DNA of 64,000 bases from an uncultured Clostridia bacterium (lineage in GTDB: Bacteria > Bacillota > Clostridia > Christensenellales > UBA3700): assembly GCA_944381275.1 (NCBI GenBank), contig CALWKO010000004.1:5100-69099 (forward strand), given 5' to 3'. Positions 2 to 64,000 of this stretch are shown piece by piece. The position numbers and the translations under genes were made by a program. The number at the start of each line of letters is the position of its first letter. Position 1 is the first letter of the stretch. The notes beneath the pieces are model-generated. The model had not been told where the DNA came from and did not search any database. It saw only the letters and a list, made by a program, of their open reading frames with translations.

Positions 2-382
2 TACTTCGGGCAGGAGTGGCTGGAAGGTCTTATCTCGGGCAACCTGGCGTTTATAGTGGTGTTCGTAGCGGCCTTTATCATCCTTTCTATAATCAAGGCT
101 ATCATCATGCACTTTGTAAACAAGAGGGGCGGCAAGATCAAGGGCGCGTTTAACGTGGTCAACCACGTGCTCGGCGCAGTCTTGGGCGCGGGCTTCGGCT
201 TTTTGGCGTTCGGCTTTGTGCTCTACTGCTATGTATCCGTCGTGGCTGTGGTCAAATACGAAGGCGACATTCAGCAAGTCGTCGCCGGGCTGGACAGCGT
301 TTCCGCTTGGATGATGAACAACAACGTGTTCCAGAAGATAGTGGAGGCTATTACGGGGTTAAAGGAGTCGATTGGGGGATAA
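2..382 (+). CDS. CvpA-like small polytopic membrane protein, 5'-truncated by the window edge
   Basis: The frame is open from nt 2, with no stop before the GTG at 56. It has Gly/Ala/Phe-rich TM helices (GAVLGAGFGFLAFGFVLYCYVSVVAVV). The family call rests on resemblance only. Confidence 0.4.
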   Translation, partial: YFGQEWLEGLISGNLAFIVVFVAAFIILSIIKAIIMHFVNKRGGKIKGAFNVVNHVLGAVLGAGFGFLAFGFVLYCYVSVVAVVKYEGDIQQVVAGLDSVSAWMMNNNVFQKIVEAITGLKESIGG

Positions 383-384
383 GG

Positions 385-570
385 ATATGATTTTTTGGGG
401 ATAAAAATCAAAATATAAGCACGCCTTACCTACCCCAAAAAAGTGATATTTTTGGCTAGTGAAATAATAAAGCCTTGATGTGAAGTGATGAGCATTAAGG
501 CTTTTTCTCTTCGCAGAAGAATATCACACGCCAAAAGTGGAAATTTGCCTGTTAAATTTCTTTGCGCGGC
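385..570 (+). repeat. composite multi-hairpin extragenic element, copy 1 (short)
   Basis: ATGATTTTTT begins 5 nt after the TAA at 380-382. It contains hairpin a (TTTTTTGGGG...CCCCAAAAAA), the linker GTGATATTTTT, and module c (GGC...GCC), which embeds a terminator. Confidence 0.8.
470..510 (+). terminator. intrinsic terminator inside element module c
   Basis: Stem AAGCCTT/AAGGCTT followed by TTTTTCTCTT, downstream of the cvpA-like gene. Confidence 0.6.
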
Positions 571-630
571 AATAGATATGGCGGCGTGTGTTGCCCCTTA
601 TACTTCCTTTCGGCAGGTTGCAAGCGCTTA

Positions 631-891
631 TTAAAGCCGGGCGCTTTCCGCGCTATCTTTCTTGCCTTCTATCTTTTTATAGAGGGGATAAGCGCATGCC
701 AGCGTGCCCAAGCCTACGATTGCGGCGATGGCTCCGCATACGCTCATTATTGCGCTGCCGCCGATTACGGCGAGGGCTATGCCCATGCCTCCCGCGAGTG
801 CGCCCACCGCGCCCACGGTTATAGATGTGGCTATTGCCGCCGCCTTTTGCTTGCGCTCCAATTGCTCGTATGCCGTAATGTTCTTTTTCAT
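631..891 (-). CDS. small glycine-zipper membrane protein (hypothetical)
   Basis: GGAG lies 9 nt upstream of the second ATG (891). The central hydrophobic stretch is a Gly/Ala zipper (GAVGALAGGMGIALAVIGGSAIMSVCGAIAAIVGLG). The overlapping + strand ORF 562..939 is Cys/Arg/His-rich and looks non-coding. Confidence 0.45.
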   Translation of the reverse strand: MKKNITAYEQLERKQKAAAIATSITVGAVGALAGGMGIALAVIGGSAIMSVCGAIAAIVGLGTLACAYPLYKKIEGKKDSAESARL

Positions 892-1154: not shown

Positions 1155-1219
1155 ATTTTTAGTAAATATAATTACACAAAAGAATTACTCTTTGATACAT
1201 GCTGATGGAGGGGGTACAG

Positions 1220-2518
1220 ATGGCAACTCAAGTATTTATAAGTTACAGGCGTGCCGATGGGTTTTATCCTGCGCTTTTACTTTATAGGGAACTTATCGCT
1301 GCCAATTATAGCGTATTTTTTGATATAAAAAGTATTCGCATGGGCAAATTTCCCGACATTATCAAGCAGAATATCGAAGAGTGCACGGATTTTATTTTGA
1401 TAGTCAGCCCGTCCACATTCAGCGAAAGAATTTTTGACGATAACGATTGGGTTCGCAAAGAGATACGCCTGGCGCTTTCTCTCAACAAAAATATTATAAC
1501 GGTTTTTATCAACACCACTATTCCGGAAACGCTCCCGGAAGATATAGATAAGATTCGTTATTTCAACGGGATACAGCAATTGGATCCCAACTTGATAAGC
1601 GAAAATTACAAGCGATTGTTTAAAGATTTTATGATTTCGCACCCACAGATCAAACCCTCTCCTTTTGTAAATAGGCGTTGTTCTGCATACGACGTAAATT
1701 TCGGTGACGAATTCGGCAGGCTGCAAATACAGTCAAGAAATTCACTTAACAGCGACCTTAGCGTGTTGAAAAAAGTGAATGCCGGCGGTGTTGTTTTGGA
1801 CGTAGGGTGTGCTTTCGGCGTAGTAACGCTGTCACGATTCGATTCTGATAATTATACTCGCGTTATAGGGATAGACAAAGATAACGATAGCGTCGCTTAT
1901 GCGTGTGAACACACTCCCGAAAAATTTGATTTTGCCGTTATGGATGTTGAAGCTAGCGATTTCCGTGACCAATTAAGCGCTTTAATGCAAAGCAAAAATA
2001 TCGAGAGTTTTGACGTGATATTTATATCTCTCGTGCTGCATCATTTGCGAGATCCTTATGCCGCATTGCGCAAATTGCGCAGATTTCTATCCCACGACGG
2101 GGTAATTATCGTCCGCGGATCGGACGACGGCACAAAAATAGCCTACCCTGATGAACAAGCGTTATTGCCGACTATAATTTCAAAAACGTTACAGGCTCAC
2201 AATGTTTCAGACAGATTACACGGAAGAAAGATTTACGATTGGCTCAAACAGTCGGGCTTTGCAAATGTCAAAATGTACAGTTTTATGAGAGACACCTCTT
2301 CCTTGGATTTAGACGAAAGAGAAGATCTATTCCGCGAGAGTTTTTCTTACCGCATAAACTATTTTCATAAACAGTTAAAGTTAGAACCCTACACTGAAGA
2401 GAACTTCCACGCATTTGAAGAGATGGAGACATTGCTTGCACTTTTCGAAAACGAATTTATGAAAGAAACATTTTGGTACGCCGAATATGATTACATAGGA
2501 GTAGGCTATAAAAAATAA
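1220..2518 (+). CDS. TIR domain / class I SAM-dependent methyltransferase fusion protein
   Basis: RBS GGAGGGGG sits 7 nt before ATG 1220. The N-terminus (VFISYRRADG...ILIVSPS...DWVRKEIRLAL) is TIR_2-like. The C-terminus carries methyltransferase motifs (VLDVGCAFG, DVIFISLVLHHL, DGVIIVRG). Confidence 0.85.
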   Translation: MATQVFISYRRADGFYPALLLYRELIAANYSVFFDIKSIRMGKFPDIIKQNIEECTDFILIVSPSTFSERIFDDNDWVRKEIRLALSLNKNIITVFINTTIPETLPEDIDKIRYFNGIQQLDPNLISENYKRLFKDFMISHPQIKPSPFVNRRCSAYDVNFGDEFGRLQIQSRNSLNSDLSVLKKVNAGGVVLDVGCAFGVVTLSRFDSDNYTRVIGIDKDNDSVAYACEHTPEKFDFAVMDVEASDFRDQLSALMQSKNIESFDVIFISLVLHHLRDPYAALRKLRRFLSHDGVIIVRGSDDGTKIAYPDEQALLPTIISKTLQAHNVSDRLHGRKIYDWLKQSGFANVKMYSFMRDTSSLDLDEREDLFRESFSYRINYFHKQLKLEPYTEENFHAFEEMETLLALFENEFMKETFWYAEYDYIGVGYKK

Positions 2519-2601
2519 CTGCGTAAACCCGCCTTTTTTACCGATAAAAAGCGGCTGTGCGGGCACTTTTCTTTTTTCCCGTTTTCTGCTATAATGGGGA
2601 T

Positions 2602-3795
2602 ATGGACGAAAAAGAAAAACAGCAAATACGCGAACAAGTCACCTTGCGGGCGCGAGAGGCGGAAGACAGGCTCTCCCCTTTTGCCGCGCGTGAAAAGGAC
2701 TGCTTGCGAAGAAGCGACTATTCCTACAACTTCTACCGCCGCGGATATGTGCGCGATTGCGAAGCGGTGATAAATTTGGCGCAATACAACCGTTACGGCG
2801 GCAAGACGCAGGTGTTTTCCCTGCACGCGAACAACGATATATCCACGCGCGCCTCGCACGTGGGACTCGTTTCGCGCATAGCCCGCACGATAGGCAGAGC
2901 GCTCAATTTGAACTGCGACCTCATCGAAGCCATCGCCTGCGCCCACGATTTGGGGCACGCGCCCTTTGGTCACAAGGGCGAAGTGTGGCTGAACGCCGCC
3001 GCGCGCAAGTACGGCTATACCTTTGCCCACCATGTGCAATCGGCGCGCTACCTCGACCACATCACCCGCTCCAATATCTCCCTGCCCGTGATAGACGGCG
3101 TATTGTGCCATAACGGCGAACACGTCCTGCGCGAATATGCGCCCAACGAGCTCGCAACTCGCACTTTTGACGACTTGGAAAAAAAGCTGGAGCGCGCATA
3201 CCGCGGGGAGATAACCCAAGCCGAGCTCATGCCCGCCACCTTGGAAGGCTGCCTGGTGCGCATATGCGACGTGATAGCCTACCTGGGCAAGGACAGGCAG
3301 GACGCGGACAGGCTGGGCGTGCATCCCCTGAACGATTACACCGACTACGGCGCGGGAGTGCTCAACCACAAGATAATACGCGCGGCGGGCGAGGACATCA
3401 TCTTCAACAGTTACGGCAAGAACGCGATAGTGCTTTCCGACAATATATACGCCGCCCTGGTAAACGGCATGCGCGAAAACTACGCCTTTATATACAAAAC
3501 GGAGAGCACGGGCATAACCGCAGAGCAGTCACAGCGCATGGAAAAGGCGGTGGAAGAGGCTTTCGAGTTTGTTTTGAGCGATCTTAGGGCGGGCGGCAAG
3601 CTGCTGGACGAGATATACTTCCCCTATATCTACGCCAATCCTTCTTCCGTGCAGGCATACAAAAAAGCGGACGAAAACGCGCCCGAACGGGTGGCGGCGG
3701 ACTTCATTGCGAGCATGTGCGACGACTACTTCCTCTCCTTCTACAACAGGTATTTGGGCAGGCTGGAGCTCAAGCGGACGGATTATTTTGATTAA
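2602..3795 (+). CDS. HD-domain dGTPase-like triphosphohydrolase
   Basis: SHVGLVSRIARTIG...IACAHDLGHAPFGHKGE is the classical dGTPase-family HD signature. The start is set at ATG 2602 (MDEKEKQQ) because the upstream ORF extension is Phe-rich junk. Confidence 0.8.
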   Translation: MDEKEKQQIREQVTLRAREAEDRLSPFAAREKDCLRRSDYSYNFYRRGYVRDCEAVINLAQYNRYGGKTQVFSLHANNDISTRASHVGLVSRIARTIGRALNLNCDLIEAIACAHDLGHAPFGHKGEVWLNAAARKYGYTFAHHVQSARYLDHITRSNISLPVIDGVLCHNGEHVLREYAPNELATRTFDDLEKKLERAYRGEITQAELMPATLEGCLVRICDVIAYLGKDRQDADRLGVHPLNDYTDYGAGVLNHKIIRAAGEDIIFNSYGKNAIVLSDNIYAALVNGMRENYAFIYKTESTGITAEQSQRMEKAVEEAFEFVLSDLRAGGKLLDEIYFPYIYANPSSVQAYKKADENAPERVAADFIASMCDDYFLSFYNRYLGRLELKRTDYFD

Positions 3796-42560: not shown

Positions 42561-42891
42561 AATATGATTTTTATGGGGCGCAAAGTAATTGTTTGCGCAG
42601 CGTTAGCGCCCCATAAAAATCGTGATATTTTTTACCTTCATATACAATAATTTAATACGCCGCTTTTATCAGAAGGTAAAAAGTGATATTTTTTGGCAGA
42701 TAGACAATTCTCCGTGAACAACTCTTCGTGTGCCAAAAAGTGATATGCGCCCTCAAACCGCGGAGCGACGAGAGGGCGCGTGATATTTTTGGAGATACTG
42801 TTTGCCGCAAGCGTCAAACGCTCTCCAAAAGTTGCGGCTCCGCAAAGCGGATTTGCAACTACTTTTTCTTATTGCGAAAGTTATCATTCTA
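42561..42891 (+). repeat. composite multi-hairpin extragenic element, copy 2 (left arm of an inverted pair)
   Basis: It starts with ATGATTTTT 5 nt after the glnN stop. Five hairpins (a-e) follow, separated by GTGATAT linkers. The tail is AAAAGTTGCGGCTCCGCAA...CTTATTGCGAAAGTTATCATTCTA. Confidence 0.85.
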
Positions 42892-43283
42892 TCATTCTTA
42901 GATTTAATAGTAAAGCAACGTTATTTATCTAAAAAAAATTCCAAATGCGCCTGCGGCACCTTAACTTACTTCGCGGAAAAGAGTTGCGGTAAGCGCTGCT
43001 ATTTAATAAGGAAAGCTGACTGCTTGGGAAGAATGCAAGCATAATAATGTTGTCCGCGAAAGCCGATTACGCTATAAATAGCACAATCGGCGTCCGGCGT
43101 TGCTCGCAACAGTACGCGCTTCAAATAGTTGCGCTTGCCCTGCTTTGCCGAGTATCGATAGTTTATATGCGGAAAGATTAGTGACGTATCGGGTATCGTT
43201 TCTATATCTGTCGCCGCGCAAAGAGATTTGCGGGCAAATCTCCACGCGCCCTTATATCTCCCCAAACAAATAGTTTATTGTGC

Positions 43284-43602
43284 TAGAATGATAACTTTCG
43301 CAATAAGACCAACCAAGTGTAAATGCGCCTGCGGCACCTTAACTTTTGGACAGCGCCGCTTGCGGCTGTATGTCCAAAAATATCACGCGCCCTCTCGTCG
43401 CCTTGGCGGTTTGAGGGCGCATTTCACTTTTTGGCACACGAAGAGTTGTTCACGGAGAATTGTTTATCTGCCAAAAAATATCACTTTTTACCTTCTGACA
43501 AAAGCGGCGTATTAAATTATTGTATATGAAGGTAAAAAATATCACGATTTTTATGGGGCGCTAACGCTCGCAAATATTCTTTTTGCGCCCCATAAAAATC
43601 AT
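43284..43602 (-). repeat. composite multi-hairpin extragenic element, copy 3 (right arm, inverted)
   Basis: It is the reverse complement of the same module order. Its ATGATTTTT contains the TGA stop (43599-43601) of the 291-aa gene. Confidence 0.85.
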
Positions 43603-44474
43603 TTACTTACGATTTCCCCCGTCCTCACGTCCTGGTACATCACCCAATACCCCGCGCCTTCTTCTTCCACGGGCAGCCAGCCGCGGCATTCGGGGCGAAC
43701 GGAAGGTGGAGTTGTGTTGTCCTTATCGGGCACGCCGTAGCACAGGTAGCGCGCCTGCCCTTCTTCGTCGGCGATTATGCCCACGACATAGCTGCCTCCG
43801 CCGTCGGTGGGTACGCTGACCCACGCGGAGTTGGGCACGGCGGCGGCGAGCGCTTTCTGCTTGGGATAGGTAGAGAAAAGTTCGTCCAAATTCCCTTTTA
43901 TCTCCTCTAAAAAGTCAACTTTTTCGCCCCTGCTCCCGTTTTTTGTTCTTTTTGGCTTTGGCTGTTTCTTTTCTTCTTGCCCTGATTGCGCAGCCGAGGC
44001 GGGCTCTTCTTTTTTATTTGCACCCTCTTCTTGTGCGGCGAGCGCTTCTTCCGCTTTGACCGCCTCTTCCGCCTTTATTTCTTGCTCGGCGGGCTCTTTT
44101 ATTGCAGGCTCTTCCGCCTTTGCCGCGCTCTCTGCTTCGGCTAAATCGCCCTCTTTCTCTTGCTCGGCGGCTTCCTTGGCAAGCTCCTCGCACTCAAAGA
44201 CGGGCGCGGGAGAGGACAGCGCGATTATCGCCCCGCCCTTTACTATGCGCGCCGCCACCTTGCTTTCGCGCGTAAGCGGATAAGGCAGGTTGAACTTACT
44301 CAACGCGGGCGCGGAGAAGTATCTGCCGTCTATCATGAACTCGGCGATAGCCCCGTCCGGGCAGTGCGTCTTAACCTCGCCCACCGTGTTTCCGCCGAAA
44401 TATTCCAATTTGATCAGTCCCGGCGCGCCGCCGTCGGTGCGCACGAGCACGATATTCTTTTTTACCACGAACAT
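43599..44474 (-). CDS. hypothetical protein with a central Glu/Ala/Lys-rich linker
   Basis: This is the last gene of the metG-rsmA operon, with globular ends flanking a low-complexity acidic linker. No family is recognised. Confidence 0.65.
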   Translation of the reverse strand: MFVVKKNIVLVRTDGGAPGLIKLEYFGGNTVGEVKTHCPDGAIAEFMIDGRYFSAPALSKFNLPYPLTRESKVAARIVKGGAIIALSSPAPVFECEELAKEAAEQEKEGDLAEAESAAKAEEPAIKEPAEQEIKAEEAVKAEEALAAQEEGANKKEEPASAAQSGQEEKKQPKPKRTKNGSRGEKVDFLEEIKGNLDELFSTYPKQKALAAAVPNSAWVSVPTDGGGSYVVGIIADEEGQARYLCYGVPDKDNTTPPSVRPECRGWLPVEEEGAGYWVMYQDVRTGEIVSK

Positions 44475-60154: not shown

Positions 60155-61729
60155 ATGCTGAATGTAATACCGTATCCCAATAAAGTGCGCGTGCGCGAAG
60201 GCGAGCTGGAGATGAAGGGCACGATAACCGTGCGTTGCCCCGAACGCTACTCCGTTATAGCGGAAAAGTTCACGGCGGATCTGCACAAAAGTCTGCCCTC
60301 TTTGCACGTGGAAGACGAAGGGAACATATTGATAGACTTTAATCTCGTTGCCGATTACGGGCAGGAGGAGTACTCGCTGGACATCTCCGGCAAGGGGATA
60401 GACATACGCGCTTCAAAGGCGTCCGGCTTCATCTACGCCTGCCAAACGCTCTACCAAATGCTCGAGCTGCACAAGTTCCACGGAGCGAGCGTAAAGATCC
60501 CCTATTGTTACATCTCCGACAAACCGCGCTTCCGCTGGCGCGGCATGCTCCTGGACGAAGCGCGCCACTTCTTCGGCAAGCAGGAAGTGCTGCGGCTTTT
60601 GGAGATAATGGCGATGCACAAGCTCAACGCGCTGTGCTGGCATCTGGCGGACGACCAAGGCTGGAGGATAGAGAGCAAGCGCTACCCCCTCCTCCACGAG
60701 ATAGGCTCCCGCCGTTCGGATACGCAGATAGGCGGCACCCGTTCGGAAAAGTTCTGCGGGCAGGGACACGAAGGCTTCTACACACAAGAAGATATACGCG
60801 AGATAGTGGAAAAAGCCCACTCCATGAGCATACTTGTCATGCCGGAGATCTCCATGCCCACGCACGTGGGGGCGATGGCGGCGGCTTATCCGCAGATAAC
60901 CTGCTCGGATAAGTGCATGCCCGTGGCTACATCTTTCGGCGACCGCGGCACCCTTCTTTGCGCGAGCAGCAGCGAAACGCGCGAATTTATCCGCGGCGTG
61001 CTGGACGAGATATGCGAGCTTTTCCCCTCCCCCTACATCTCGCTCAGGGCGGCGAATCTGCACGCGGAAAAATGGCTCTCCTGCGAGGGGTGCCGCAAAT
61101 ATATGCAAGAGCACTTTATGCACGACCCCAAGCAGCTGCAGGCGGCGTTTTTGAACGACATCTCCGAATACTTAAAGAAGAAGGGGCGGCGCATGCTGTG
61201 TGAAAACACCGCGATGGCGGACGGCATGGACCGCGACATAATAGGCATCTACTCCACCGGGGAAAGGGACAAGACCCTGCCCGATCAGCTGCGCTGGGGC
61301 AGGAGCTACATCATCTCAAAGCCCAACTATTTGGACTTCGATCTCCCCTACTGCACGCTGCCGCTGACCAAGACGTACTCCTTCGATCCGGACAAGGAGC
61401 TGAAGGGCTGCCGCTTCCTTCACGGCAAGGTGATGGGCATGCAGGCGAACTTGTGGACGGAGTGGATATACGACAGAGAAAAGCTGGATATGTGCCTGTT
61501 CCCGCGCATGGCGGCGCTGGCGGAGGCGGCGTGGACGGAGCCGAGCGAAAAGAGCAAGTCGAGCTTTATAAAGCGCCTCACCCCCTACCGCGAACTGCTG
61601 GACGGCAGCGACATAAACTACGCCAAGGACAAAATTTGCATGCCGCGCAACCCCATTTCGCGGTTTAGAAAAAGATACTACTACAACTTAATGGACCAAT
61701 ACTTAGAGGTCCGGGAGAACAGAAAATGA
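60155..61729 (+). CDS. GH20 beta-N-acetylhexosaminidase homolog lacking the catalytic Asp-Glu pair
   Basis: The GH20 core motifs RWRGMLLDEARHFF, CWHLADDQGWRIE and ANLWTEW are present. The HxGGDE position reads SLRAAN (61037-61057) and EIDxPGH reads EISMPTH. Confidence 0.82.
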   Translation: MLNVIPYPNKVRVREGELEMKGTITVRCPERYSVIAEKFTADLHKSLPSLHVEDEGNILIDFNLVADYGQEEYSLDISGKGIDIRASKASGFIYACQTLYQMLELHKFHGASVKIPYCYISDKPRFRWRGMLLDEARHFFGKQEVLRLLEIMAMHKLNALCWHLADDQGWRIESKRYPLLHEIGSRRSDTQIGGTRSEKFCGQGHEGFYTQEDIREIVEKAHSMSILVMPEISMPTHVGAMAAAYPQITCSDKCMPVATSFGDRGTLLCASSSETREFIRGVLDEICELFPSPYISLRAANLHAEKWLSCEGCRKYMQEHFMHDPKQLQAAFLNDISEYLKKKGRRMLCENTAMADGMDRDIIGIYSTGERDKTLPDQLRWGRSYIISKPNYLDFDLPYCTLPLTKTYSFDPDKELKGCRFLHGKVMGMQANLWTEWIYDREKLDMCLFPRMAALAEAAWTEPSEKSKSSFIKRLTPYRELLDGSDINYAKDKICMPRNPISRFRKRYYYNLMDQYLEVRENRK

Positions 61730-62865
61730 AAAAAACTCTGGTAAACGTCCGCCCTTTTTCCGAGGGCAAAATAAAACCCATGTGCAGCATAGTCATCGAG
61801 GACGGCAAGATCTCCTCTATGGGCAACATGATAGCCGGCGACGTGATAGACGGCGGCGGCATGATCGCCTGCGCCGGATATATCGACATCCACACCCACG
61901 GCGGCTGGGGCAAGGACTGCATGGAGCCCACCTACGAGGCGATAGACACCGTGGCAAGATATCACCTGTCCACGGGCATAACCTCCTTCTGCCCCACCAC
62001 CATGACGGCGGATATAGCGGACATAGAAGCCGCCCTTGCCAACATGCGCTCTTATAAGACGAACGGCGCGCGCCTTGCCGGGGCGCACCTGGAAGGACCC
62101 TTCCTCTCTTCTAAGGCGGCGGGAGCGCACCCCCTGGACAAGCTGCAAAATCCCGACAAGAACAACACCGCCTTCATCACCCGCAACCGCGACATGGTCC
62201 GCCGCATAACCGTGGCTCCCGACCTTCCCGGCGCGCCCTTCGTGACCGCGCTGTGCGCGAGCATGGGCATTCAGGTTTCGATAGGCCACGACGGCAGCAT
62301 AGACGACGAGATCCTCGCCTGCATAGAAGCGGGCGCAAGCAGCGTTACGCATATGGGCAACTGCACTTCGCACGCTTCACGCCGTTACCCCTCCCCCAAA
62401 AAACACCTGGGACTTTTTGAAATGGGCCTTGCCGACGACCGCCTGGTTTGCGAAGTCATCGCCGACGACCGCCACGTCCCCGACGCGCTCTTTAAAATCT
62501 TCTACCGCTTGAAGGGCAAGGACGGCATATGCTTTGTCTCCGACTCCCTCTCCGTTGCCGGTATGAGCGAGGGCGACTACTTCCTGGGCAGCGGCGAAAG
62601 CGCGCAAGCCATCCGCATAGAAGACGGCGTGGCGGTGCTCCCCGATAAGCACACCTATGCCGGCTCCGTGACCCCTATATCCAAGATGGTGTCCCGCCTG
62701 TACGCGCAGGGCTACCCCGCGGAAGACGTGCTCACCATGGCTACCCTCACCCCCGCAAGGCTCGTAAACCTCACCGACCGCGGCGACCTCCGCCCCGGAC
62801 TTTTGGCGGACATCAATTTGCTGAATGACAAGCTGGAAGTGGTGAGGACGATGATGGGGGAATGA
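61726..62865 (+). CDS. nagA: N-acetylglucosamine-6-phosphate deacetylase
   Basis: It has GYIDIHTHGG, GAHLEGPF and the HDGS.../SVTHMGN region. An ATGA overlap links it to the upstream gene. Confidence 0.9.
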   Translation: MKKTLVNVRPFSEGKIKPMCSIVIEDGKISSMGNMIAGDVIDGGGMIACAGYIDIHTHGGWGKDCMEPTYEAIDTVARYHLSTGITSFCPTTMTADIADIEAALANMRSYKTNGARLAGAHLEGPFLSSKAAGAHPLDKLQNPDKNNTAFITRNRDMVRRITVAPDLPGAPFVTALCASMGIQVSIGHDGSIDDEILACIEAGASSVTHMGNCTSHASRRYPSPKKHLGLFEMGLADDRLVCEVIADDRHVPDALFKIFYRLKGKDGICFVSDSLSVAGMSEGDYFLGSGESAQAIRIEDGVAVLPDKHTYAGSVTPISKMVSRLYAQGYPAEDVLTMATLTPARLVNLTDRGDLRPGLLADINLLNDKLEVVRTMMGE

Positions 62866-63180
62866 TTTTTGAGGGACGCAATTGTCTAATTGCGAGCGTT
62901 AGCGTCCCCCAAAAATCGTGATATTTTTCGGAAGATAAAGGTTATGAATTAAGCGAAAGTTGCGTTTCTTCCGAAAAGTGATATTTTTGGCTAGCGAAAT
63001 AATAAAGCCTTGATGTGACCGTGAGGGAACACAAGGCTTTTTCTCTTCGCAGAAGCTATTCACACGCCAAAAGTGATATGCGCCCTCAAACCGCAGAGCG
63101 ACGAGAGGGCGCGTGATATTTTTGCGCGTACTGTTGCGAGCAACGCCGCGCAAAAGTTGCGGCTCCGCAAGCGCATTAGA
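62862..63180 (+). repeat. composite multi-hairpin extragenic element, copy 4 (GTGATAT linkers)
   Basis: Its ATGATTTTT contains the nagA TGA stop (62863-62865). Hairpins a-e are in the same order as in copy 2. Confidence 0.85.
63006..63047 (+). terminator. intrinsic terminator inside element module c (downstream of nagA)
   Basis: Stem AGCCTTG/CAAGGCT followed by TTTTTCTCTT. It is near-identical to the module at 454-532. Confidence 0.6.
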
Positions 63181-63468
63181 ATATGATTTTTTCAGGGCAC
63201 TATTATTGGAAACACAAACACAAGCGCCCTGAAAAAATCGCGAAATCTTTTCGGGGATATAGTTTATTCATAATCAACACTATTCTTTCCCCGAAAAGGC
63301 GAAATCCATTCTCATTCGAGAATGGACGAAATCCGCCCTCAAACCGCAGAGCGACGAGAGGGCGGGCGAAATCCTTGCGCGTACAGTTGCGAGCAACGCC
63401 GCGCAAGGGCGAAGGTGCCACAGGCGCATTTACACTTGTTTTGTCTTATTGCGAAAGTATTCTTTCTA
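63181..63468 (+). repeat. composite multi-hairpin extragenic element, copy 5 (GCGAAAT linkers)
   Basis: It starts ATATGATTTTTT and keeps the a-e module order. Modules d and e are nearly identical to copy 4, but every linker reads GCGAAAT(C) instead of GTGATAT. The tail is GAAGGTGCCACAGGCGCATTTACACTTG...CTTATTGCGAAAGTATTC. Confidence 0.85.
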
Positions 63469-63534
63469 CCCCGTAAGATTACGAAGAAAACAGCTTGCGC
63501 TTTAATGTTAAAAGTAATTGCGAAGATATAAAGA

Positions 63535-63725
63535 AGTGCAATAAAGCGCGGCAAATGCCAAGCGTTACCATTAGAGAGGCTTGCCCTCTCGCGGAGCCGT
63601 GCGTGAGCAAGGCGGAGCTTGCGCAAGTGCGAAGAAATAAGGTTACACTTTAATTAAAAACTGCTGCAAAGTGATAAAGTAGTGCAATAAAGCGCGGCAA
63701 AATCGCACTTTTGCCAAGCGTTACC
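63535..63725 (+). repeat. direct repeat pair in a non-coding tail
   Basis: AGTGCAATAAAGCGCGGCAAA..GCCAAGCGTTACC occurs at 63535-63569 and 63681-63725. The second copy carries a ~10-nt insertion. Confidence 0.8.
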
Positions 63726-64000
63726 TTGAGCGGTGCGACTGCGCCGCGCCCAAGTGCCGACTTGCGGCACGATTGGACGGAAAGGGTGAATTTTTGCGGC
63801 TAAGGTTTGCGCGCTACGAGATTCAGTGTGCCGCAAAAAGAGGGGAAAACCGCGGCTCAAGCAAGCAATCTTGCGGAGCAACGGAGTGGCACCGCAACGT
63901 GATTAAGCTGCTTCATCGAGTAGTGTTGCTTGCGAATGGTGGGGTGTCCCCTCAGGCAAGCGGAAAAGGAAAAAGCAACTTACGAAGTAAACGAAAAAAC

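Follow-up and report, generated by a model that had tools for sequence, protein, structure and literature searches.

REP, BIME and REPIN elements of Proteobacteria are a described counterpart of the repeat considered here: like it, they are extragenic, multicopy, hairpin-forming imperfect palindromes that compose mosaic arrays with defined linkers, are found at gene 3' ends, coexist as several discrete families in one genome, and combine long vertical persistence with local turnover. They are mobilised by RAYT, an IS200/IS605-like Y1 transposase, and the RAYT gene is often flanked by REPs. Many REPs of E. coli reportedly begin within 15 nt of a stop codon. The BOX repeat of Streptococcus pneumoniae resembles the repeat in being a modular intergenic repeat of a Firmicute with ordered modules that fold into hairpins; it has the form boxA-boxB(n)-boxC, the copy number of its modules varies, and it encodes no transposase. 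The BOX modules are, however, conserved sequences and not hairpins with interchangeable stems, and they have neither a uniform short linker nor linker classes. A REP family is represented by one imperfect palindrome of 20-40 nt with a GTAG or GTGG head at the 5' side, the orientation alternating in BIMEs (PMC2817692), and REP-containing mRNAs are targets of 3' exonucleases (PMC12320835).

In a 64-kb stretch of DNA (64,000 nucleotides; hereafter, the window) from an uncultured Clostridia bacterium, we observed five or six copies of a hairpin-array repeat. It is a previously undescribed interspersed family of chicken-gut Christensenellales, in the genus around Candidatus Caccalectryoclostridium. 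Its architecture comprises a 5' cap, hairpins a-e in a fixed order (five different kinds, 20-88 nt), a small hairpin f and, in some copies, a terminal module; an asymmetric 7-nt linker, G[T/C]GA[T/A]AT, joins the hairpins. As with REP and BIME, the repeat is extragenic and of high copy number, both in the window and in two related MAGs with at least 37 copies. Unlike in REP, the hairpins have no GTAG or GTGG at the 5' foot, being flanked by GYGAWAT instead, the stems vary as alleles while the loops are kept, and the host is a Firmicute; unlike in BIME, all linkers and modules of an array have one orientation.

Integron attC sites and IS200/IS605 ends share with the repeat freely varying stems with conserved unpaired or extrahelical bases, strand-specific recognition, and a short core beside the hairpin foot. 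The window arrays, in contrast, have no cassettes or ORFs between the hairpins and no integrase or TnpA nearby. An integron cassette array is marked by attC sites with R''/L''-L'/R' boxes and a GTTRRRY core and by an adjacent intI; the junctions here have no GTTRRRY core (GTTGCGG does not fit), and the window has no integrase. Targeting to the lagging-strand template also fits poorly, since copies 1 and 3, situated 1 kb apart, have opposite orientations, each behind its own gene. CRISPR arrays, too, alternate a short constant sequence with variable segments and differ between close strains, but here the constant unit is 7 nt rather than a direct repeat of ~23-50 nt with unique spacers, and the "spacers" are palindromic, recur between loci, and come in a fixed order from small allele pools. 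A genome contains dozens of such arrays, and the scanned ORFs of the window showed no cas domain. In contrast to MITEs, no terminal inverted repeats or target-site duplications could be defined, and the flanks carry no visible duplication. The linkers were also considered as 7-bp target duplications of nested mini-MITEs, and this was rejected because 37 dispersed arrays have a common order and linker. ToxI-like loci of type III toxin-antitoxin systems have tandem identical repeats of 34-45 nt directly upstream of an endoribonuclease toxin gene, whereas the units here differ from one another.

No family was matched when the whole window was scanned with the Rfam 15 covariance models at the gathering threshold, and permissive Rfam scans of 62800-64000 and of positions 11100-12450 in contig L042, which is 99.9% identical to the window, gave chance-level matches only. 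Zero matches to the repeat were found by blastn in phage and plasmid collections; two scans of viral_contigs yielded nothing or chance matches in coding or AT-rich DNA, and one short contig was returned from metagenome_contigs.

Two tandem arrays downstream of nagA

The nagA gene, whose product has an Amidohydro_1 domain match, is followed by two tandem copies of the repeat, copies 4 and 5 (Table 1). The block formed by both copies and the tail is repeated 3.4 kb off in L042. The first-pass annotation had described a shared cap and module order and had placed the nagA stop codon inside the first ATGATTTTT. All of this is present in the sequence: ATGATTTTT starts at 62862 and at 63183, and the TGA, at 62863-62865, falls inside the first of these. 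The second copy, previously delimited as 63181-63468, is indeed a tandem copy but extends from 63183 to 63428 (copy 4, 62862-63182), while 63429-63468 is a separate terminal module, t, which also closes copies 1 and 3. The core of this module, CTTATTGCGAAAGT..TTCTA, recurs at 42868-42891 (+) and 43284-43307 (-), and module t is the array end at loci L040, L041 and L043 as well.

The near-identity of modules d and e between the copies was found as described: modules d are the same except for the closing pair, and modules e differ in one loop base and the outer two to four stem pairs. Modules a-c, reported to differ in sequence yet still to pair, retain their pairing, although the a-stem of copy 4 contains one A.C mismatch. 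Linker identity within a copy holds for copy 4, with GTGATAT four times, whereas copy 5 has GCGAAAT three times and ACGAAAT once; as its third linker starts with A, the invariant string of copy 5 is CGAAATC.

Table 1. Features of the repeat family in the window
Feature	Position	Strand	Basis or remark
Copy 0, partial (a, c, then X-type module)	387-544	+	begins 4 nt past a stop codon
Copy 1 (a-e, f, t), GTGATAT linkers x4	42564-42891	+	begins 4 nt past the glutamine synthetase III stop
Copy 3 (a-e, f, t), GTGATAT x3 and GTGAAAT x1	43284-43602	-	TGA of a 291-aa ORF inside the cap
nagA stop TGA, inside the 5' cap	62863-62865	+	ORF 61726-62865
Copy 4, 5' cap ATGATTTTT	62862-62870	+	cap common to copies 0, 1, 3, 5 and copies in L028, L036, L056
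Copy 4, hairpin a, GATTTTTGAGGGACGC...GCGTCCCCCAAAAATC, one A.C mismatch	62864-62917	+	folding, sequence
Copy 4, linker 1 GTGATAT	62918-62924	+	motif count
Copy 4, hairpin b, TTTTCGGAAG...CTTCCGAAAA	62925-62977	+	folding
Copy 4, linker 2 GTGATAT	62978-62984	+	motif count
Copy 4, hairpin c, long branched form, TTTTGGC...GCCAAAA	62985-63072	+	folding, sequence
Copy 4, linker 3 GTGATAT	63073-63079	+	motif count
Copy 4, hairpin d, best-conserved module of the family, 4x4 internal loop AAAC/ACGA	63080-63112	+	
Copy 4, linker 4 GTGATAT	63113-63119	+	motif count
Copy 4, hairpin e, internal loop TACTG/GC	63120-63155	+	folding, sequence
Copy 4, module f (small hairpin TTGCGG/CCGCAA) and junction ...GCGCATTAGAAT	63156-63182	+	sequence
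Copy 5, 5' cap ATGATTTTT	63183-63191	+	
Copy 5, hairpin a, GATTTTTTCAGGGC...GCCCTGAAAAAATC	63185-63239	+	folding, sequence
Copy 5, linker 1 GCGAAAT, then C	63240-63246	+	motif count
Copy 5, hairpin b, CTTTTCGGGGA...TCCCCGAAAAG	63247-63298	+	folding
Copy 5, linker 2 GCGAAAT	63299-63305	+	motif count
Copy 5, hairpin c, short form, CCATTCTC ATTC GAGAATGG	63306-63325	+	folding
Copy 5, linker 3 ACGAAAT, first base variant	63326-63332	+	
Copy 5, hairpin d, interior as copy 4; closing pair C-G vs G-C	63333-63365	+	
Copy 5, linker 4 GCGAAAT	63366-63372	+	motif count
Copy 5, hairpin e, copy 4 allele; outer stem CCTT/AAGG vs TTTT/AAAA	63373-63408	+	
Copy 5, module f, GCGAAGGTGCCACAGGCGCA	63409-63428	+	sequence
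Terminal module t closing the array, TTTACACTTG..GTCTTATTGCGAAAGT..TTCTA	63429-63468	+	sequence
Non-coding tail with own internal repeats; separate repeat, either orientation possible	63469-64000	+	extends ~330 nt beyond the window end

The predicted fold of each of these copies is a row of five or six hairpins, with -128.5 kcal/mol (z = -7.4) for copy 4 and -110.4 kcal/mol (z = -7.9) for copy 5, and no shuffled sequence was equally stable (0/100 and 0/200, respectively). For copy 5, the minus strand gives an equally good fold. The unpaired positions of the sense strand are A-rich (A 40%, T 17%). The motif GTGATAT occurs 20 times in the window (3.8 expected; 0 of 100 shuffles reach 20), 12 of these occurrences being inside element copies. 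CGAAATC has no overall enrichment (9 occurrences, 14.5 expected); its four occurrences on one strand within 133 nt have a window-corrected Poisson p of ~2e-6.

Linker classes, module alleles and turnover

A search with the module-d pattern yielded 39 loci in three MAGs, and at least 37 distinct full copies were collected from two related MAGs, CALWHE01 and DVNJ01. All copies lie between genes, with any overlap confined to the final codons of a gene. The linker exists in four classes, and arrays are almost always homogeneous. Each sampled genome has two main classes, different at both variable positions. In the 37 copies of CALWHE01 and DVNJ01, 147 of the 148 linkers are GTGAAAT, the exception being one ATGAAAT; a second array type of the MAG with GTGAAAT arrays has GCGATAT. 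In the window species together with CALWRK01, 21 of 24 distinct hairpins have the same linker class on both sides, and none has GTGATAT on one side and GCGAAAT on the other. Across the sampled loci the linkers fall into discrete classes, homogeneous within arrays, rather than into random mixtures accompanied by non-compensatory stem changes, the pattern that the first-pass annotation had named as refuting its inference. The linker is not copy-specific, contrary to the suggestion of a copy-specific factor: it is specific to a class, and both GTGATAT and GCGAAAT arrays recur at several loci in several strains. Copies 4 and 5 each represent a different linker-defined subfamily; neither is a diverged duplicate of the other.

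Module order is fixed in all 37 copies, and alleles keep their own position. The alleles are discrete and occur in nearly free combination, with 33 haplotypes per 37 copies; 11 of 12 AxB combinations and all nine BxE ones were observed. The element ends, ATGAT/ATGTCC (5') and GT(G/T)GCGG (3'), resemble half linkers, and nested X modules come after GTG|G or GCG|G; inverted resemblance of the ends depends on the e-allele E1 and is absent with E2 and E3.

Among strains that share the same NagA and have 98.4-98.8% identity in the flanks, the number of copies is one, two or at least four, and their class differs. Part of this variation is taken from metagenome assemblies, in which repeats can cause mis-joining; three independent assemblies contain the variant first copy adjoining nagA. 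Two species whose flanks share 86-94% identity both retain arrays at two shared gene ends. In the sister species Ca. C. excrementigallinarum, the region from nagA to rpsR is only 146-150 nt and contains no array. The arrays take the stop-codon-proximal place where the sister species has a short spacer, and the sequence beyond them coincides with a synteny break.

Stem pairing and position relative to genes

Stem cells are paired in 99.1% of cases, compared to 30-53% in the slid controls, and 20 of the 66 stem pairs show compensatory double changes, a number reached by none of 500 shuffles. Random decay, already dismissed in the first-pass annotation, is excluded. The earlier argument from compensatory change to structural selection stands insofar as the stems are maintained, but it does not extend to selection on RNA structure: outside the invariant linker ends we observed nine G.U and 12 A.C among 2441 cells, and the strand test for wobble pairs revealed no asymmetry. 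As G.U is no more common than A.C, the pairing is Watson-Crick on both strands, as DNA palindromes would show. Much of the apparent covariation between copies 4 and 5 reflects a small number of discrete module alleles reshuffled among copies, not a long series of independent compensatory changes.

Even where both stems differ, e.g. at L043, the internal loops stay conserved (in module d, AAAC/ACGA); the loops contain GCGAAAG (GNRA-like) motifs, and a T.G closing pair is invariant on the sense strand only. Several structural candidates were rejected. The K-turn consensus does not fit module d, no conserved pairing of linkers with a complementary 7-mer exists within the element, and GUGA/GCGA of the linker could form the GNRA loop of an alternative junction hairpin at the b|c junction only.

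The 5' ends of window copies 0, 1, 3 and 4 overlap a co-oriented stop codon or lie within 9 nt of it, and in the related MAGs nine copies have the 5' end within 6 nt of such a codon; abutment of the 3' end to a stop codon was never seen. Some ORFs run into the element and terminate in loop a. By an approximate hand classification of the left flanks, about 24 co-oriented stops face five divergent starts (binomial p ~3e-4), orientation from crude ORF calls being too noisy for a firm statistic. At least five copies sit beside a divergent gene at its 5' end, so a 3'-UTR position does not apply to every copy. No downstream gene is conserved across the dozens of loci. Within the arrays, module t and the tail, no sense-strand terminators were predicted, and a promoter scan of the same regions gave nothing convincing. 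In the short spacer of the sister species, two small hairpins followed by T-runs can be seen by eye; the terminator scan did not flag them, hence we do not call them terminators.

Candidate explanations

A multicopy family of five hairpins with a class-coded linker points to a REP/BIME-like genome repeat and not to a one-off structured RNA gene. We favor, with a probability of about 0.55, a BIME/BOX-like mosaic repeat, in which copies 4 and 5 would be adjacent members of the two subfamilies, copied and reshuffled at linkers, and co-transcribed as a 3' UTR. The linker and the closing base pair of the hairpin would serve as the site of array copying or module exchange, the candidate agent being a single-strand, hairpin-foot-specific enzyme or short-patch gene conversion restricted to crossing over at the linker. 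Exchange of like with like would create two isolated pools per genome, and "concerted" linker identity would then arise without selection on each copy. As the arrays begin at the stop codon and have no predicted sense-strand terminator-like site inside, they would form the 3' UTR of transcripts from the upstream gene, where their hairpins may act as REP-like 3'-end barriers able to influence termination or decay.

The trans-acting factor of this reading is inferred, and no mobilising enzyme was found near the copies. All-against-all blastp of 731 locus ORFs revealed no multicopy ORF next to the copies, only spurious ORFs reading through the repeat; a search for HUH/Y1 motifs in ~400 kb of loci gave one spurious antisense ORF and no real candidate; no transposase, integrase or RT domains were present among the 30 largest window ORFs scanned; and neither RAYT (Y1 HUH transposase) in the ~400 kb of loci or the scanned window ORFs nor a recombinase gene among the locus ORFs and scanned window ORFs was seen.

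A distinctly less probable alternative is a functional structured RNA, either a cis-acting 3'-UTR scaffold or a polycistronic precursor, whose single-stranded GYGAWAU linkers would be the target of a class-specific factor, either an RNA-binding protein or an RNase that cuts, for instance, behind a G in A/U-rich surroundings next to a hairpin; genomic spread would then be secondary. It would account for the sense orientation with starts at stop codons, the fixed a-e order, the strong compensatory change with conserved internal loops, the A-rich unpaired positions, the GNRA-like loops, the sense-only T.G pair, and the persistence at the same gene ends in two species. Against it stand the equally good folding of the minus strand of copy 5, the lack of a G.U excess and of an Rfam match, and the copies upstream of divergent genes; besides, dozens of copies in a small genome with strain-level gain and loss would be unusual for a trans-acting RNA gene. 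A further reading, which we consider rather unlikely, is that the linker and closing pair form an address code read by dedicated factors, so that two orthogonal systems run in each genome (here GTGATAT and GCGAAAT; in the sister MAG GTGAAAT and GCGATAT). Either system would possess an enzyme of its own to cut and rejoin single-stranded DNA or RNA at the hairpin feet, and would in this way copy arrays and swap modules. If true, such arrays would represent a novel type of non-autonomous mobile element, or else of RNA-processing array, whose compatibility groups are programmable.

An integron- or shufflon-like array of hairpin cassettes served by a site-specific recombinase seems improbable. With the 7-bp linker as a crossover region requiring identity between partners, it would explain the orthogonal linker classes and the free module exchange, and it agrees with homogeneous linkers, two classes per genome that differ at two positions, freely assorted alleles with breakpoints at linkers, half-linker-like element ends, and X modules nested after GTG|G or GCG|G. 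However, the fixed order and position-bound alleles in 37/37 copies fit homology-guided conversion better than exchange at a bare 7-mer, the arms flanking the linker form inverted repeats solely at the b|c junction, and no array has a recombinase gene close by. A simple tandem duplication of a single element with subsequent neutral divergence, suggested by the adjacency of the copies and by the 83% identity of their d-e halves over 103 nt, is refuted by the distribution of differences and the family data: linkers and closing pairs account for nearly all d-e differences, modules a-c keep their pairing although their sequences are unrelated, and both types recur elsewhere. Still less credible is a gene in copy 5, where an open frame of 97 aa (63183-63476) exists; in copies 0, 1, 3 and 4 the corresponding frame meets a stop after 5-28 codons, indels between copies are not multiples of three, and the stem changes are paired. 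A mini-ORF from the cap ATG was rejected, the peptides being unconserved and the Shine-Dalgarno spacing inconsistent.

REPIN-like systems have, to our knowledge, barely been described in Firmicutes, and the family would add to them a persistent, vertically inherited repeat population of this kind. Its ordered hairpins, coded linkers and allele shuffling pose a mechanistic question, namely, what reads the 7-nt linker and keeps the linkers of an array uniform. The arrays alter the C-termini and stop codons of genes, provide a sensitive marker of strains, and break metagenome assemblies, most contigs with this nagA ending inside arrays. In CALWHE01, a small GTGG-headed palindrome, separate from the element, is situated beside the arrays.

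Copies 4 and 5 and the repeat family

On re-reading the sequence we found the region of copies 4 and 5, the two tandem element copies behind a nagA homologue, as the first-pass annotation had described it, including the nagA stop codon (TGA, 62863-62865) lying inside the first ATGATTTTT (at 62862). All four linkers between hairpins a-e of copy 4 are GTGATAT, as claimed; for copy 5, GCGAAAT(C) throughout had been claimed, which holds for linkers 1, 2 and 4, linker 3 being ACGAAAT, and every linker is followed by C, giving an invariant string CGAAATC. Copy 5 starts at 63183, and its end moves back from 63468 to 63428, the rest being a separate terminal module, the core of which is likewise the last part of copies 1 and 3. 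Copies 4 and 5 each fold as a string of hairpins (z-scores -7.4 for copy 4 and -7.9 for copy 5). GTGATAT occurs 20 times in the window versus 3.8 expected, a five-fold enrichment, and four CGAAATC strings inside 133 nt of copy 5 have a corrected probability of ~2e-6.

In the d-e half, differences between the two copies are nearly all in the linkers and closing pairs. The view of the copies as diverged twins is not borne out: a pair of copy 4-type and copy 5-type with the tail behind them recurs inverted, 3.4 kb off, in contig L042 (99.9% identical to the window). Thus, copies 4 and 5 are members of two linker subfamilies. The tail is a 650-nt non-coding segment behind arrays, with internal repeat units of 146-156 nt and a long T-rich hairpin at its end; it recurs at a second locus, is inverted in a related species, and has no match in Rfam.

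The repeat is a family, not a single locus. Among GTDB representative genomes, the module-d pattern matched 39 loci in three MAGs other than the window's own: an uncultured Christensenellaceae bacterium (CALWHE01), Candidatus Caccalectryoclostridium excrementigallinarum (DVNJ01), whose NagA is 86% identical to that of the window, and an uncultured Clostridia bacterium (CALWRK01). All related sequences are MAGs or metagenome contigs, and one contig that matches the window belongs to a series of chicken-gut metagenomes. We aligned 37 distinct full-length copies from CALWHE01 and DVNJ01 (253 columns). No similar sequence was found in Rfam 15, in phage or plasmid collections or in viral contigs, and no description of such a repeat in the literature searched.

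Coordinates of the repeat copies and associated features (L-numbers, loci fetched from related MAGs and metagenome assemblies)
Feature	Position	Strand	Remarks
Copy 0 (partial)	window 387-544		
Copy 1	window 42564-42891	+	terminal-module core 42868-42891
Copy 3	window 43284-43602	-	terminal-module core 43284-43307
nagA homologue	window 61726-62865		ORF; Amidohydro_1 domain
Copy 4	window 62862-63182		hairpins a-e, four linkers, small hairpin f last
Copy 4 hairpin a	window 62864-62917		
Copy 4 hairpin b	window 62925-62977		
Copy 4 hairpin c	window 62985-63072		
Copy 4 hairpin d	window 63080-63112		
Copy 4 hairpin e	window 63120-63155		
Copy 5	window 63183-63428		module order as in copy 4
Terminal module	window 63429-63468		
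X module	window 541-700		
X module	window 43060-43260	-	
X module	L041 11300-11430, 11840-11990, 12060-12180		also L007, L013, L028, L036
GGGGGA runs	window 373-378, 62856-62861		
GGGGGA run	window 43616-43621	-	
Tail	window 63469-64000; L042 11690-12340		
Tail	L042 14380-15040	-	
Tail	L059 4200-4700		

Linker classes, module alleles and stem pairing

The expectation that linkers fall into discrete classes, and not random mixtures, was upheld by tabulating them across copies, arrays being nearly always homogeneous. GTGAAAT accounts for 147 of 148 linkers in the 37 aligned copies, and a second array type in the same MAG as GTGAAAT arrays lacks module d, orders its modules differently and has GCGATAT linkers. 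The window species and CALWRK01 together provide 24 distinct hairpins with a linker at each end, namely GTGATAT on both sides in 10, (G/A)CGAAAT in 11 and mixed neighbouring classes in three; none of the 24 joins GTGATAT with GCGAAAT. Thus, all four combinations of G[T/C]GA[T/A]AT exist, and in each of the two genome groups on which this comparison rests the two main classes have different bases at each of the variable positions. Class also shows in the stem: all GCGAAAT-class hairpins open with C and close with G.

The modules occur as discrete alleles (four of a, three of b, about 12 of c and three of e), which keep their own position in a constant a-e order and combine almost freely: the allele pairs seen are 11 of 12 for a with b, 9 of 9 for b with e and 11 of 12 for a with e, and 37 copies contain 33 four-module haplotypes. 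Breakpoints fall within module d or within the linkers and the runs beside them, the sole shared sequence. The compensatory covariation of stems that had been proposed is present; with so few alleles in almost free combination, however, much of the column-wise signal is reshuffling of pre-paired alleles. We also observed a module of ~150 nt (X, starting with G(A/G)AATTTGCC..CAAAT(T/C)TC), which always follows a truncated linker (GTG or GCG, then G) and replaces or interrupts modules within arrays.

RNAalifold predicted 66 pairs over the 37 copies, 20 of which show two-sided changes with pairing retained. In this structure 99.1% of 2441 cells pair, compared with 89.7% in shuffles (0 of 500 reach this value, although the copies are mutually related, so that the shuffle statistics overstate independence) and 30-53% in slid-partner controls. 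There are 2226 Watson-Crick and 194 G.U cells, and 185 of the latter are one invariant T.G, in which the AT...GT ends of consecutive linkers meet; apart from these we counted 9 G.U, 12 A.C and 9 other mismatches, hence neither a wobble excess nor a strand asymmetry in the stems of the 37 copies. Such an outcome is as expected of DNA palindromes or very strict pairing, and is not what selection at the RNA level usually leaves. The suggested selection on structure is therefore supported insofar as stems are maintained by two-sided changes, but RNA-specific selection is not (9 G.U versus 12 A.C).

At the same time, the element has polar features: its linker is asymmetric, the T.G closing pair is confined to the sense strand, and sense-strand bases left unpaired are rich in A (40%, versus 17% T). 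Internal loops are kept while the surrounding stems change: AAAC/ACGA in module d persists even in the L043 variant, in which both stems have been exchanged for others, and ATAC(T/A)G in module e is kept on one side. The folded single strand, be it DNA or RNA, appears to be read by something.

Placement at gene ends and turnover

Copies 0, 1, 3 and 4 begin at a stop codon or at most 9 nt past it, co-oriented with the gene. Copies 1 and 3 are convergent, 1 kb apart, each after its own gene, which speaks against replication as the determinant of orientation. Nine copies in the related MAGs start at most 6 nt from the stop codon of an ORF that is co-oriented and at least 120 aa long, and no copy there has its 3' end abutting a stop codon. 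The placement rule is strong but not absolute, since at least five copies lie upstream of divergent genes. In L020 (3040-3100 and 4500-4560) two genes without a stop of their own, one an amidase-like ORF, run 7-10 codons into hairpin a and stop in its loop.

NagA ends in ...MGE only where an array lies at the stop codon, and elsewhere in ...FMF or ...LML. Copies 0, 4 and 3 have a GGGGGA run 0-13 nt 5' of their ATGATTTTT cap. Hence the element may reach a few bases further 5', perhaps having rewritten the last codons. In the CALWHE01 loci (L002-L039) a small palindrome GGAGCGCGGGGCGCTCCACCCC (reverse complement GGGGTGGAGCGCCCCGCGCTCC), a GTGG-headed REP-like unit, adjoins either end of many arrays in co-orientation (e.g. 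L017 5132-5153, 5431-5452); its exact copies number 27 in the fetched loci, and the window has none.

The family combines rapid local turnover with long-term persistence. Between nagA and rpsR, Ca. C. excrementigallinarum has 146-150 nt and no array, two closer relatives have 616-905 nt, and strains of the window species have 910-1770 nt. Arrays differ among strains with identical NagA and flanks 98.4-98.8% identical: L040 has one GTGATAT copy after nagA, the window two copies, and L041, L043 and L048 have GCGAAAT-class arrays of at least four copies with nested 150-nt inserts. In the first copy the a-loop is the same across all three lineages; the stems are different but fully complementary, and the linker class differs. 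As the variant first copy stands next to nagA in three independent assemblies and the shared junction is only 15 nt, mis-assembly is unlikely there, although possible deeper in the arrays. At two gene ends, arrays are present in both of two species whose flanks are 86-94% identical; thus, occupancy can last long.

Most metagenome contigs with this nagA (L043-L049) end in the array, 150-730 nt past the stop codon, so the repeat is a systematic assembly breakpoint for the genus. In L040 (11700-12600, compared with L042 12300-12700) an adh_short gene replaces rpsR-ssb-rpsF after the array and tail, and hence a synteny break lies in or beside the repeat; it could be a real rearrangement or a mis-join.

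Possible mechanisms, known repeats and other window genes

For this high-copy polar hairpin-array repeat at gene ends, with its discrete linker classes and allele shuffling, we infer that the linker and closing pair are the site where arrays are copied or modules exchanged, so that only arrays of the same class would interact. Linkers would then be uniform without selection on each copy, and each genome would hold two isolated pools. The agent could be a single-strand enzyme specific for the hairpin foot, akin to RAYT acting on REPs, or else short-patch conversion limited to the 18-55 nt of shared junction sequence; no candidate enzyme was seen in ~400 kb of fetched loci or among the 30 largest window ORFs scanned. 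No terminator-like site is predicted on the sense strand inside arrays, and this together with the position at gene ends suggests that the arrays are transcribed from the upstream gene. They may then act, like REPs, as barriers at the 3' end, which is a plausible role.

The chief alternative is that an RNA function is primary, with GYGAWAU bound or cut in a class-specific manner. In its favour are the polarity of the element, its A-rich loops and the conservation of its internal loops; against it, wobble pairs are lacking, some copies lie at divergent promoters, and copies are gained and lost at the strain level.

Among known kinds of repeat, REP/BIME/REPIN comes nearest, sharing with the element extragenic hairpin mosaics, defined linkers, several families per genome, persistence and location near stop codons. 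We nevertheless rejected membership in REP/BIME, because the defining sequence features, namely a GTAG/GTGG head, alternating orientation and RAYT (PMC2817692), fail: the element lacks the head and the alternation, and no RAYT was seen in the same ~400 kb and window ORFs. Nor does it correspond to pneumococcal BOX elements, MITEs, attC arrays or CRISPR arrays. The surprising parts are the coded linker and the allele shuffling.

Elsewhere in the window, a nine-gene operon encoding very large proteins (12859-34468, minus strand; 1502, 633, 641, 502, 374, 1303, 567, 946 and 717 aa) has AAA_11/AAA_12/DUF4011/REase_MTES_1575, SNF2/ResIII/Helicase_C and MBG_3 as its only recognised domains, six proteins having no Pfam match; it looks like a helicase/nuclease defence island. 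At 1199-3795 (plus strand) a fusion protein of TIR_2 and SAM-methyltransferase (439 aa), followed by an HD-domain protein, may form a small defence or signalling pair.
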